This document shows, piece after piece, positions 16,330-19,961 of a DNA stretch of 64,000 nucleotides. The stretch's first letter is position 1. Every line of letters begins with the position of its first letter. The notes under the pieces were generated by a model. It saw nothing but the letters and a program-made list of their open reading frames with translations, searched no databases and was not told where the DNA came from. Origin of the DNA: a virus (Duplodnaviria > Heunggongvirae > Uroviricota > Caudoviricetes); IMG/VR virus record IMGVR_UViG_3300047472_000248, positions 52,315-116,314 of that record; one strand, 5' to 3'. A program made the translations under genes and the position numbers.

Positions 16330-16575
16330 ATGTCAGAAGTCACGATCACCATGCCCAAGGAACTCACGGGCGAAATGCTGCGCGCGGTGCGTGAGCATCC
16401 ACTCACGAAGGTCGAAGACCGCGACGAGATGAACCTGCGCATCGGCTGGCTGATCTGCGCCTGGGACGTGCTCGCGGAGCACCGCCGGCCGCCACCCGTG
16501 CCGTATCGACCGCCACAGCCGACCCCACTGGGGGCGATTCCCAACGATCCGAGAGTGAAGTGGTCCTGGAAATGA
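16330..16575 (+). CDS. hypothetical protein
   Basis: 81 aa; RBS AGAGACTGCCCCT; ATGA overlap with dnaE start. Confidence 0.45.
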   Translation: MSEVTITMPKELTGEMLRAVREHPLTKVEDRDEMNLRIGWLICAWDVLAEHRRPPPVPYRPPQPTPLGAIPNDPRVKWSWK

Positions 16576-19500
16576 ACCCCCTTCAGATCGCCCCATCGAT
16601 TCGCTCCGACTTCTCGATCGGCGAATCCTCTGCGCAGATCCCGAAGCTGGTCGACCGCGCGAAGGAGCTGGGCTACAAGGCGCTCGCGCTCGTGGACACC
16701 ATGAGCGTCTCGTCGATGCCCAAGTTCGCCAGCGCGTGCAAGAAGGCCGAGATCAAGCCCATCGTTGGCTGCACCGTCCGGGTCGTCAACGATCCCGCCG
16801 AGCGGGTGAAGGACCGCGAGAATGGCGGCTACCGCCTGAAGGTCTACGTCAAGACCGAGCGGGGCCTGCAGTCGCTCTACCGGTTGCTGACGACGGCGCT
16901 CCAGCCCGACCACTTCTACTATCACAGCCGCTGCTCGCTCGACGAGGTCCTGCAGCTCGAGGACGTGATCGTCACCACGGGCGACATGCACAACCTCTGG
17001 CACCGGCAGGACGCGGCCGCGATCGACAGCCACCTGATTCACCGCTTTGGGAACGACTACGGGGTGGAGCTGGTCGCGCTGAAGACGCCACTCTTCGACC
17101 GCCTGAACCGCACCGCCTGGGAAGTGGCACAGTCTCAAAGCCGCAACATCATCGTCACCCGGCCGGTCTTCTACCTCACGCCGGAGGATGCCGACAGCAC
17201 CGACGTGCTGCGGGCGATCTCGTCCAACACGTCGGTCGACAGCATCTTCCTCCCGCAGCCCTACGTGCGCGACATGGCGCTGCTCGACCCCAAGGACTAC
17301 CTGAAGCACCTGCAGGCGCTCGACGAGACGCTGGGCGCCAAGGTGGCAAGCCGCGGGCTGCACCACGTCAAGGGCATCGCCGACAACTGCACCTACGAAT
17401 TCAAGAAGCTCCCACCCTCCATGCCCAAGATGGCAGAGGACGAGTTCGTCACTCTCTGCGGCATCGTGCGCGACGGCTGGACCGAACGCTTCTCGAAGAC
17501 CGTCTGGGGCCACGCGCCGGCGCCCGCCGAGCTGCAGGTCTACAAGGACCGCCTCAGCTTCGAGCTGAGCGTCCTGAAGAAGATGGGCTTCAGCGGCTAC
17601 TTCCTGCTGGTGCACGACATCGTCCAGTGGTCGAAGGACAACGGCATCCGCGTGGGCCCCGGGCGGGGCTCCGCCGGCGGCAGTCTGGTCGCCTACCTCA
17701 TGGGGATCACTGACCTCGACCCCGTGCGCTTCGACCTCCTGTTCGAGCGCTTCATCAATCCCGACCGGATCGACTTGCCCGACGCCGACCTCGACTTCAT
17801 GTCCGGGCGCCGGCACGAGGTGATCGAATACATCACCAACAAGTGGGGCAAGGATCACGTCGCGGGCATCGTCAACTTCTCCACCCTGGGCGCTGCGTCT
17901 GCGCTGCGCGACAGCGCGCGCCTGCACGGCCTGAAGCCCTACGAGTATTCGTGCTCGAAGCAGATGGAGAAGGAGCACGGGGTCGCGCTCAGCCTCGAGA
18001 AGTCCGCCGAGCTGGTGCCCGACATCGAGAAATTCAAGCTGGACCGCCCGGTGATATGGAACCACGCGGTGCGCATCGAGGGCGCCAACCGCAACCTCTC
18101 GCAGCACGCCGCGGGCGTGGTCGTCGCCGGCGAGCCGATCGTCAACCGGGCGGTGGTCTCCACCCAGCCGGGGCACGCGGTCATCCAGTGGGACAAGAGC
18201 CAGGTCGAAGAGTTCGGCCTGATCAAGATGGACATCTTGGGCCTGACGACGCTCGACGTGATCGATGCGATCCTCACCTACGTGAAGGAGCGCCATCACA
18301 AGACGATCGACACGCTGCGGCTGCCGCTCGACGACGACAAGACCCTGAAGGCATTCGCCAAGGGCGACACCGTGGGGGTGTTCCAGTTCACGGGGTCGGG
18401 CATGCGCAAGCTGCTCAAAGAGATGGCGATGGGCGGGCCGCTGACGTTCGACGATGCGTGCGCTGCCACCGCGCTGTTCCGGCCGGGCCCGCTCGACGCC
18501 GGCCTGTGTGACCGCTACGTTCAGGTGAAGCAGGGAGCCGCGACGCCCTACTACGAGCACCCCGCGCTCGAGGAGTGCCTCAGCGACACCTTCGGCGTGA
18601 TCGTCTACCAGGAGCAGGTCATGAAGATCTGCCGGGTGCTCTGCGGGTTTACCCCGGGTGAAGCCGACGGTGTGCGCAAGGCCATCGGGAAGAAAGACCC
18701 GGTGAAGATGGCCGAATACGGGGAGCAGTTCGTCGCCGGCGCCGTCAAGGCAGGCATGGACAGCTTCCGCGCCGAGGCGCTTTGGGAGCAGATTCTGGGC
18801 TTCGCGGGCTACGCCTTCAACAAGTCGCACAGCTACGCCTACACGCTGCTCAGCTACACCACCATGTGGCTGAAGGTGAACTACCCGCTGGAGTTCTTCG
18901 CGGGCTCGCTGTCGGTGGTCGACGACTCGGACGCCCAGGCGATCCTGATCGCCGACGCGCAGAGCAGGGGCATCCGTGTGCTGCCGCCCGACGTGAACTA
19001 CAGCAGCGCGCGCATCGAGATCAAGGGCGAGGACGAACTCTACGCGCCGCTGCAGGCCGTCAAGGGCATCAGCAGCAACGTCGCCGCGTCGATCCTGAAG
19101 CTGCGCGAGGCCACCTCGGAGCACGTCCACGTCGGGCCGCCCGTGGTCAGAACGAAATCCCCGCTGACGATGACGGACTTCGATCCGGCGCGCCAGAAGG
19201 AGATTTTGGGGCGGGTCAAGGTCAACGCCGCGCACCGCGCTGCGCTCGATAAGGTGGGCGGGTTCTTCTCGATCACCGGTGGCGTGCCCCCGACGCACCC
19301 TGACCGCTTGCGCGACCGACTGGCACTCATGCCCGGGTTCACCGTCGAGACGGTGAAGGCCGATCGGAAGCTCACCGTCGAGCACCTGGCCAAGATCAAG
19401 ATCACCCGCCTGGTGGAAGAGGCGCGGACCTGCGAGGGCTGCTCGTTCAAGGGCAAGACGCACCCCGTGGTCCGCATGGGCGACGCGCCGAAGTTCATGC

Positions 19501-19961
19501 TGGTCTTCGACACCCCGAGCTACCAGGACGACCGGGCGGGCAAACTGCTCGCAGAGGGGAGCGACGAGCGCCCGGGCAACTACGAGGTCGTGCGCGCCGC
19601 GCTGAAGGGCATTGGGCTTCGGGTCGGCGACGGCTACTACACCGCGCTGGTGAAGGCCGCGAAGAACAAGGGCCAGAAGGAGCTGACGAACGAGCAGATC
19701 AACGGGTGCAGCAAGTTCCTGATGGAGGAGATTGCGATCCTGAAGCCGCCCGTCATCGTCGCCATGGGGAGCAATGCGGTGCGCTTCTTCGCGCCGGGTA
19801 TCAAGGGCTCGCCGGCTGACCTCGCCGGCAAGGCCATCTATCGCAGCGATCTGGACGCAACCGTCATCTTCGGCATCAACCCGGCGTCGCTGTTCTTCGA
19901 CCCGAGCAAAGAGGCGCTGATCGTTGCGGCATTCGACAAACTGGGCGAGCTTTTGAGCTGA
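16572..19961 (+). CDS. dnaE: DNA polymerase III alpha (DnaE-type) with C-terminal family-4-UDG-like domain
   Basis: PHP domain; GFSGYFLLVHDIVQWSK...RVGPGRGSAGGSLVAYLMGITDLDPV...DLDF polymerase core; C-terminal CEGCSF...FDTPS...CSKFLMEEIAILKPPVIVAMG...GINPAS parallels UDG family 4 with GEAPG replaced. Confidence 0.85.
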   Translation: MNPLQIAPSIRSDFSIGESSAQIPKLVDRAKELGYKALALVDTMSVSSMPKFASACKKAEIKPIVGCTVRVVNDPAERVKDRENGGYRLKVYVKTERGLQSLYRLLTTALQPDHFYYHSRCSLDEVLQLEDVIVTTGDMHNLWHRQDAAAIDSHLIHRFGNDYGVELVALKTPLFDRLNRTAWEVAQSQSRNIIVTRPVFYLTPEDADSTDVLRAISSNTSVDSIFLPQPYVRDMALLDPKDYLKHLQALDETLGAKVASRGLHHVKGIADNCTYEFKKLPPSMPKMAEDEFVTLCGIVRDGWTERFSKTVWGHAPAPAELQVYKDRLSFELSVLKKMGFSGYFLLVHDIVQWSKDNGIRVGPGRGSAGGSLVAYLMGITDLDPVRFDLLFERFINPDRIDLPDADLDFMSGRRHEVIEYITNKWGKDHVAGIVNFSTLGAASALRDSARLHGLKPYEYSCSKQMEKEHGVALSLEKSAELVPDIEKFKLDRPVIWNHAVRIEGANRNLSQHAAGVVVAGEPIVNRAVVSTQPGHAVIQWDKSQVEEFGLIKMDILGLTTLDVIDAILTYVKERHHKTIDTLRLPLDDDKTLKAFAKGDTVGVFQFTGSGMRKLLKEMAMGGPLTFDDACAATALFRPGPLDAGLCDRYVQVKQGAATPYYEHPALEECLSDTFGVIVYQEQVMKICRVLCGFTPGEADGVRKAIGKKDPVKMAEYGEQFVAGAVKAGMDSFRAEALWEQILGFAGYAFNKSHSYAYTLLSYTTMWLKVNYPLEFFAGSLSVVDDSDAQAILIADAQSRGIRVLPPDVNYSSARIEIKGEDELYAPLQAVKGISSNVAASILKLREATSEHVHVGPPVVRTKSPLTMTDFDPARQKEILGRVKVNAAHRAALDKVGGFFSITGGVPPTHPDRLRDRLALMPGFTVETVKADRKLTVEHLAKIKITRLVEEARTCEGCSFKGKTHPVVRMGDAPKFMLVFDTPSYQDDRAGKLLAEGSDERPGNYEVVRAALKGIGLRVGDGYYTALVKAAKNKGQKELTNEQINGCSKFLMEEIAILKPPVIVAMGSNAVRFFAPGIKGSPADLAGKAIYRSDLDATVIFGINPASLFFDPSKEALIVAAFDKLGELLS

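Follow-up and report, generated by a model that had tools for sequence, protein, structure and literature searches.

What is a uracil-DNA glycosylase (UDG) fold doing at the end of a replicative DNA polymerase, and can it still act on uracil? The question is raised by a gene in a 64,000-nucleotide stretch of tailed-phage DNA (Caudoviricetes; positions 52,315 to 116,314 of IMG/VR virus record IMGVR_UViG_3300047472_000248), the whole of which we call the window. This gene, at 16572..19961 on the + strand, encodes a DnaE-type polymerase III alpha subunit carrying a C-terminal UDG-like domain, an assignment based on the list of open reading frames (ORFs) and on matches to PRK05673 and phrog_405. 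Residue numbers 1-1133 are counted throughout from an in-frame GTG at 16560.

A family-4-type UDG fold in place of the OB fold and the tau-binding domain

Profile and structure methods alike supported a UDG fold, as the initial annotation had proposed, and delimited a family-4-type domain at residues 957-1133 (19428..19958, +). Pfam matched PF03167 at residues 986-1124 with 32.5 bits against a cut-off of 24.3 (E 1e-7), and the family-4 UDG model TIGR00758 aligned over positions 1-171 of 173 to residues 958-1132 (E 1.5e-12), scoring 47.5 bits and thus far under its trusted cut-off of 125.3. Searched with phmmer against the PDB, the last 233 residues retrieved 1vk2 (E 4e-9) as well as 1ui0, 4zbx and UdgX, and a profile built from 53 homologues matched 4zbx across the full length (E 4e-19). 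An AlphaFold2 model of residues 730-1133 reached a mean predicted local distance difference test value of 89 and a predicted template modelling (TM) score of 0.70. Its top Foldseek matches were family-4 UDGs (E 1e-11, target TM-score 0.82-0.86, root-mean-square deviation 2.2-2.6 Å); UdgX ranked next, then came the DnaE beta-binding region, and family-5 UDG and TDG trailed by a wide margin. Structures retrieved from the viral library BFVD were phage UDGs and UDG-bearing phage polymerases. The family-4 enzymes of T. thermophilus (1ui0), T. maritima (1vk2) and S. tokodaii (4zbx) have the same fold over the whole window domain, and share with it the CxxC start, a Y-x-T-x-x-V-K strand, the helix bearing the last Cys and a P-x-[IV]-[IV]-x-x-G strand. 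According to these data, the C-terminus of the window DnaE is a family-4-like UDG fold, with a similarity far beyond chance.

UdgX of M. smegmatis (6ajo), which has a family-4-like fold, also gave significant sequence and structure matches to the domain, the match to the UdgX model TIGR03914 being partial and reaching 35.7 bits against a cut-off of 190. Neither motif A (GEQPG) nor motif B (HPS) of UdgX is kept in the window protein. UdgX-type covalent chemistry was rejected, as the R-loop KRRIH with its cross-linking His109 is absent and the corresponding window loop reads AAKNKGQKE.

The preceding part of the protein is a DnaE-type polymerase, in agreement with the initial annotation. Pfam identified a PHP domain at residues 15-143 (16602..16988, +; PF02811, 70 bits), a Pol3 core made up of palm/thumb (324-561) and fingers (564-731; together 17529..18752, +; PF07733, 260 bits, and PF17657, 171 bits), and a (HhH)2 or beta-binding-domain region at residues 804-852 (18969..19115, +; HHH_6, PF14579, 36 bits), all four models exceeding their own cut-offs. 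The three catalytic aspartates of the palm are present, D408, D410 and D558 aligning to D463, D465 and D618 of Taq Pol III alpha. TIGR00594 scored 707 bits against a cut-off of 434, and PRK05673 from NCBIfam covered residues 14-854 (E 6e-227), whereas the equivalog DnaE models stayed under their cut-offs (PRK05673, 756 bits vs 1002). The N-terminus of the PHP domain (16602-16640) is without the HxH metal ligands, reading SIRSDFS as compared to RVHSDYS in E. coli, and the best matches of the domain are to the epsilon-binding PHP of E. coli alpha, an exonuclease-dead PHP to which we liken it. This fits with the separate DnaQ-like 3'-5' exonuclease at 42387..43061 (+; Pfam RNase_T, 82.5 bits, residues 38-196), the presumed proofreader, which the initial annotation had likewise placed apart from the polymerase. 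The window DnaE probably relies on this separately encoded enzyme for proofreading.

The DnaE models reach no further than residue ~854 (of ~1146), and beyond it neither an OB fold nor a tau-binding C-terminal domain (CTD) was matched. A profile of the family aligns to residues 733-895 of E. coli alpha (E 9e-37) and then departs from DnaE, while phrog_405 spans residues 14-1126 of the window protein (E 1e-291). The UDG-fold domain thus stands where cellular DnaE has its OB fold and tau-binding CTD.

The reading frame itself is unbroken from 16560 to 19961 (+) in the program-made ORF list, comprising 1133 codons counted from the GTG, and its composition (GC content at third codon positions 0.93, window GC 65%) is typical of a real gene. 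Translation probably starts at the ATG at 16572, yielding a product of ~1129 aa, because this ATG shares an ATGA with the stop codon of the preceding ORF and the alignment of homologues begins at residue 5. The start at 16572 given initially is therefore retained, whereas the accompanying length of 1133 aa belongs to the GTG count.

Active-site replacements across the DnaE-UDG family

As reference for the active site, we used T. thermophilus (Tth) UDGa (1ui0), to which the domain was aligned with HMMER and MAFFT. The pocket of this enzyme has been defined experimentally and comprises E41, G42, E47, F54, N80, H155 and the water-positioning N89; N80 recognises uracil through bidentate hydrogen bonds, and the H155S exchange lowers k2 by more than three orders of magnitude (PMC5387724). 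In the window protein, the motif-A equivalent F983-D-T-P-S987 (19506..19520, +) replaces the family-4 sequence G-E-[AG]-P-G, and of Tth G40-E41-G42-P43-G44 only the acidic residue (D984) and the proline (P986) are kept, F983, T985 and S987 standing at the glycine positions. E47 corresponds to D990 and F54 to L997, and the position of the uracil-recognising N80 is taken by A1029 (19644..19646, +). In the motif-B equivalent G1105-I-N-P-A-S1110 (19872..19889, +), H155-P156 becomes N1107-P1108, such that an asparagine replaces the catalytic histidine. The N89 position falls into a loop that is variable or deleted in the DnaE-UDG family. Together with the fusion to a polymerase, these replacements set the window protein apart from family-4 UDGs. 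The strings quoted in the initial annotation (C958-E-G-C961, F983-DTPSYQDD991, C1050-SKFLMEEIAILKPPVIVAMG1070 and G1105-INPAS1110) were all recovered, and both motifs are indeed non-canonical.

The replacements are a property of the family. Homologues were collected as 119 clusters (E 1e-10 or better) from a library of 1.84 billion representatives, and conservation was counted over 100 sequences, namely 99 near-complete domains and the window, with representatives at <=50% identity. At the E41 position (D984), 92 of the 100 sequences have Asp, at the E47 position (990) 96 have Glu or Asp, and Pro is found at the P43 position (P986) in 85. The N80 position holds Ala (29), Ser (29), Gly (20) or Thr (19) and never Asn, the F54 position is non-aromatic throughout, and the H155 position is occupied by Asn in 61 sequences, Ser in 22, Thr in 13, Gly in two and His in one, with N/S/T-P at motif B being near-universal. 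No variation is seen at E1057 and G1070, and very little at T1028, Y1026 and P1108. Basic residues K1032, K1035, K1082 and K1091 are highly conserved; the DNA-contact elements that have been kept comprise K1032, K1035, the K1082-G loop, G1090-K1091 and a hydrophobic wedge, [ILV][YFH][FHY], following motif B. The DnaE-UDG family is under strong purifying selection, and the residues that read and expel uracil have been systematically given up. Fold, DNA-facing loops and the two acidic pocket residues are kept across the family.

An active glycosylase with altered chemistry or specificity, working during replication, would have to make use of what is left in the pocket, with D984 or the acidic residue at 990 activating the water and N1107 serving in place of the histidine, as in MUG. 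The conservation of both acidic positions, the near-universal N/S/T-P motif and the complete UDG fold predicted with high confidence are in line with such an enzyme, and some polymerase-fused UDG domains do keep all catalytic residues (Czernecki et al., PMC10201439). We nevertheless regard this explanation as unlikely: the histidine occurs once in 100 sequences and swaps with Ser and Thr, the uracil-specific asparagine is absent in all of them, the aromatic stacking residue is lost and the N89 loop varies, and the H155S change alone costs more than 1000-fold in Tth UDGa (PMC5387724). Furthermore, the element encodes ThyX and a thymidylate kinase, such that ordinary T-DNA is to be expected.

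The iron-sulfur site of family-4 UDGs has changed as well. Tth Cys13, Cys16, Cys84 and Cys100 map to C958, C961, A1033 and C1050 of the window protein, which thus retains three of the four Fe-S cysteines and adds a new conserved histidine, H968. As judged by mapping on 1ui0, C958-x2-C961 and H968 (19431..19463, +) together with C1050 (19707-19709) form a putative Cys3-His metal site. The four residues co-occur, all being present in 43 of the 100 sequences and none in 37, with the other 20 mixed or gapped; the position of the classical third Fe-S ligand (Tth C84) is never Cys in the family. The tetrad is kept in the window, in Pseudomonas phage nickie and in a Cupriavidus-like clade, but missing in SSU5, RHEph10, ANB28 and P0055, and members without it usually have Tyr or Trp at C1050. 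Sequence comparison thus suggests that the Cys3-His site was remodelled from the family-4 [4Fe-4S] site and is dispensable in part of the family, and H968 may substitute for the fourth Fe-S cysteine.

Because catalytic residues are lost and the metal-site residues are gone in about 40% of the family, the domain might be viewed as the decaying and now functionless relic of a fused UDG that was once active. We give this view almost no credence, since the full-length domain is kept in ~100 clusters that have diverged to 30% identity, the two invariant residues included, and is kept even where dnaE has been split in two.

Possible roles of the UDG-like domain in the replicase

UDG folds have been joined to phage replicative polymerases in other lineages. 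Family-4 UDG domains are found at the N-terminus of PolA in N4-like phages (cluster 17) and in SPO1, SP-10, SP-15 and other Spounavirinae (Czernecki et al. 2023, PMC10201439). In the N4-like enzymes, the catalytic residues of the UDG domain are unconserved, and a role in processivity has been proposed (PMC10201439). These proteins resemble the window protein in joining a family-4-type UDG fold to a phage replicative polymerase, but the polymerase belongs to family A instead of family C and the fusion is N-terminal instead of C-terminal. The nearest non-DnaE match in tblastn searches was the PolA domain of Lysinibacillus phage LysYB1 (Spounavirinae), in agreement with phrog_17 and BFVD. It has A-D-N-P-T as motif A and Gly at the N80 position, such that Spounavirinae PolA and the window share an x-D-x-P-[ST] motif A and a small residue at N80; unlike the window domain, the Spounavirinae domain keeps all four cysteines and the motif-B histidine. 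Judging from these sequence features, polymerase-attached UDG-like domains may form a related subgroup.

Between the (HhH)2 region and the UDG-like domain, a linker motif, R916-LRDRLALMPGF927 (19305..19340, +), was detected from column counts. It lies shortly after the (HhH)2 domain, just past the stretch whose alignment to E. coli alpha ends at residue 895, and its family consensus, R-x-[KR]-D-Q-x-E-L-[LM]-P-G-[LIV], is among the best-conserved stretches of the C-terminal half (R916 in 68, Q920 in 65, L923 in 54 and P925 in 61 of 72 representatives). E. coli alpha carries its internal clamp-binding motif, QADMF, in the corresponding place, at residues 920-924. The linker motif resembles the clamp-binding consensus and may be a candidate tether to the host beta clamp. 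No sliding clamp was recognised by Pfam or PHROG among the 40 scanned window ORFs, divergent clamps still being possible, and none is annotated in ~91 kb (1-50,000 and 56,965-97,615) of the 106-kb Cupriavidus plasmid that is the closest complete relative. We count the lack of a recognised clamp gene in these regions in favour of the mechanism outlined below.

We lean, with modest confidence, towards the UDG-like domain being a non-catalytic DNA-binding module that stands in for the OB fold and CTD and possibly adds processivity. We take the gene to encode the replicative C-family polymerase of an SSU5/pMT1-type phage-plasmid, with an intact core and with OB fold and CTD swapped for a family-4-derived UDG fold. 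The domain has lost the residues for uracil excision and retained its fold, its DNA-contacting loops and a conserved polar pocket. Beside the polymerase, it would hold or scan the template or duplex and thereby make up for the absent OB fold, raise processivity, or both, and the upstream linker motif may tether the polymerase to the host beta clamp. A UDG fold is employed in a comparable way by poxviruses, whose D4 protein serves the viral DNA polymerase as a processivity-factor subunit, a role independent of glycosylase catalysis. D4 is an analogy, as it is a family-1 UDG, a separate subunit, catalytically competent and from a eukaryotic virus.

Several lines of evidence favour the non-catalytic module. 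Among the functions offered by the initial annotation, a degenerate or DNA-binding module fits best, because the catalytic histidine and the uracil-reading asparagine are replaced family-wide; the altered glycosylase and the uracil sensor, which it had also listed, are less favoured. Since Asn, Ser and Thr interchange freely at the H155 position, hydrogen bonding or binding fits better than catalysis. Moreover, the domain sits exactly where OB fold and CTD are missing, and the N4-like family-A polymerases, with their unconserved catalytic residues, provide a precedent. Other observations weigh in the opposite direction. The proposed loss of activity is extrapolated from mutagenesis of one enzyme, Tth UDGa, and with D984, the acidic residue at 990 and the N/S/T-P motif so well conserved, weak or re-targeted glycosylase chemistry is conceivable. 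Motif B of E. coli MUG has Asn in place of His, and this enzyme is functional. As to the clamp tether, position 920 is R in the window and its closest clade and not the usual Q, which is usually critical.

The same pocket could be put to a different use, as a non-catalytic, base-specific read-ahead sensor that flips template bases and stalls or modulates the polymerase at uracil or a lesion, similar to the pocket of archaeal family-B polymerases. Polar pocket-lining residues are conserved, the wedge loop is kept and the domain sits in the position of the OB fold, which in the Taq and E. coli structures of cellular DnaE lies near the single-stranded template. However, the residues that give uracil specificity (N80, H155 and F54) are exactly those lost, which makes a sensor rather improbable in our estimation. 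Taking sensor and glycosylase together, we doubt that the C-family replicase carries a working base-flipping reader, be it a read-ahead sensor or a glycosylase re-invented around Asp/Glu and Asn/Ser.

As a further alternative, the domain may be a protein-protein platform that replaces the tau-binding CTD and couples the polymerase to helicase/primase, single-stranded DNA-binding protein (SSB), DnaQ or the conserved proteins encoded downstream. The CTD that it replaces mediates replisome coupling in cellular DnaE (PMC3919608), and two small conserved ORFs without assigned function follow dnaE in the relatives examined. In contrast to what a platform should show, conservation centres on the former active site and the DNA-binding elements and not on a new surface; we thus consider this role a poor candidate compared with the DNA-binding module.

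Distribution, split genes and neighbourhood

The initial annotation implied that the architecture was new. This does not hold, as DnaE proteins with OB fold and CTD replaced by a UDG domain have been described in Yersinia and Salmonella under the name DnaEX (Timinskas et al. 2014, PMC3919608), and the part of that paper dealing with the DnaE-UDG architecture cites Aravind & Koonin 2000. The whole PHP-Pol3-(HhH)2-UDG arrangement constitutes one PHROG, phrog_405, and the GenBank note of RHEph10 already reads 'uracil-DNA glycosylase-like'. In tblastn searches, the UDG-like domain was located in genes annotated 'DNA polymerase III alpha' of 31 phage records, with Rhizobium, Pseudomonas syringae, Klebsiella, Escherichia, Salmonella, Stenotrophomonas and Xanthomonas as hosts, and in 965 plasmids of PLSDB. 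Of these plasmids, 835 are non-mobilizable, the examples listed being mostly 100-120 kb, and the leading genera are Klebsiella (319), Escherichia (219), Acinetobacter (154), Enterobacter (91), Yersinia (63) and Salmonella (49). The other part of the initial statement, that no biochemical characterisation is known, agrees with our literature searches, in which no biochemical or experimental work on a DnaE-fused UDG domain was found. One related record, of Xanthomonas phage JGB6 (L006, OQ436456.1 32803-40420), has coding-sequence calls and product names around its dnaE-UDG match that look fragmented and shifted, with 'AAA family ATPase' given as the name of the UDG-like region; faulty annotation or assembly of the record is the probable cause.

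The DnaE-UDG architecture is thus already described, and it is common in SSU5/pMT1-type elements. The DnaE proteins of pMT1 (Yersinia pestis), pHCM2 (Salmonella) and phage SSU5 share the domain order PHP-Pol3-(HhH)2-UDG-like with the window protein and likewise show x-D-x-[PA]-x and G-[IF]-N-P in place of the canonical motifs, the UDG-like domain of SSU5 being only ~31% identical to that of the window. In the plasmid collection, the closest UDG-like domain is from a Cupriavidus plasmid (49% identity), and some metagenome proteins reach 69%. Compared to the SSU5/pMT1 type, the window protein differs by R instead of Q at position 920 and by a private six-residue insertion, GSDERP, at residues 1000-1005 (19557-19574), which among the 53 aligned close homologues occurs in the window protein only. 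At the DNA level, megablast against phages and plasmids returned no close relative, the matching patches of ~72-92% identity each covering <=13% of the query. The window protein is a moderately divergent new member of a known architecture.

In many relatives, dnaE is divided. Among the closest database homologues, 53 of 55 are ~350-470 aa long, mostly 385-420 aa, and consist of (HhH)2 and UDG-like domains only; the wider family contains ~30 clusters of this ~350-470-aa size vs 38 of full length. In all three contigs examined (L001 7141-11206, L007 6925-11188 and L008 7180-11167), dnaE is cut at one site, where the fingers end (equivalent to residues 728/732 of the window protein, ~nt 18743-18755). 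An ORF for an HNH_3/NUMOD homing endonuclease lies between the N part (~760-780 aa) and the C part (~390-400 aa) of dnaE; its ends overlap or nearly abut the dnaE parts in L001 and L008, with a 36-nt gap before it in L007. The N part gains a tail of 33-47 aa whose conservation shows in the protein but not in the DNA, and a short head, 'MKI.S..PLN' (6-11 aa), is added to the C part. A group I intron was rejected, as Rfam gave no match at E up to 1 and the N-part tail is conserved as protein, not DNA. A split intein was likewise rejected, given tails of only 33-47 and 6-11 aa, the lack of an HN-C/S/T junction and the lack of a longer upstream ORF. To judge by their sequences, the split relatives seem to run on a two-piece DnaE, whereas the window carries an uninterrupted allele.

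As a whole, the window is the arm of an SSU5-type element that is devoted to replication and nucleotide metabolism. It encodes a DnaG-like primase, an ATP-dependent ligase, a ParA-like protein, a CobT-like VWA protein, a CobS/MoxR-like AAA protein, a sigma-70 region-2 protein and DnaE, further a gp32-like SSB, FEN, RecA, Mre11/Rad50, RuvC, a class II ribonucleotide reductase and ThyX, as well as thymidylate and guanylate kinases, DnaQ and RtcB. Primase, ligase, the CobT-like and CobS/MoxR-like proteins, dnaE, SSB, FEN, RecA and Mre11/Rad50 make up the neighbourhood shared with the SSU5/pMT1 type, and the gene order of the window recurs in Salmonella phage SSU5, Pseudomonas phage nickie, a Cupriavidus metallidurans plasmid and three metagenome contigs. 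The Cupriavidus metallidurans relative is a 106-kb non-mobilizable plasmid with tail, capsid, TrfA and ParB genes.

Just upstream of dnaE, genes for the CobT-like VWA protein (11402-13762) and the CobS/MoxR-like AAA+ protein (13863-15086) are present in every relative examined. Between the latter and dnaE, a small protein (15083-15742) matches sigma-70 region 2 with 24 bits, right at the Pfam cut-off, and contig L007 also has a sigma-70 region-2 gene at the equivalent place before dnaE. Directly downstream, the ORFs at 20009-20470 and 20473-21006 belong to phrog_3806 and phrog_1069/2058, respectively, and small ORFs occupy this place in the relatives examined as well; neither window ORF matched Pfam or, by phmmer, the PDB. 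These two products could be polymerase accessory proteins. Farther away, a ParA-like partition ATPase (phrog_164) is encoded beside a 266-aa protein without assigned function (phrog_26900) at 9504-10163 (-) and 7971-8771 (-), and at the position of this pair the Cupriavidus relative has MipZ/ParA and TrfA, an arrangement that points to a phage-plasmid lifestyle. An RtcB RNA ligase (44724-46073, 424 bits) is located near a phosphoesterase, phrog_547 (47476-48204); the two may make up a module for RNA repair, possibly as a counter to host defences that cleave tRNA.

Phage-plasmids of the SSU5/pMT1/pHCM2 type are widespread in Klebsiella, E. coli, Salmonella, Yersinia and Acinetobacter, and replicate with a DnaE-UDG polymerase. 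If the domain were after all a base-flipping reader, phage-plasmid replication would have a built-in check of template quality that cellular DnaE lacks. The role of the UDG-like tail would show how a C-family polymerase works without OB and tau-binding domains, and it bears on the UDG-like domains joined to phage family-A polymerases.

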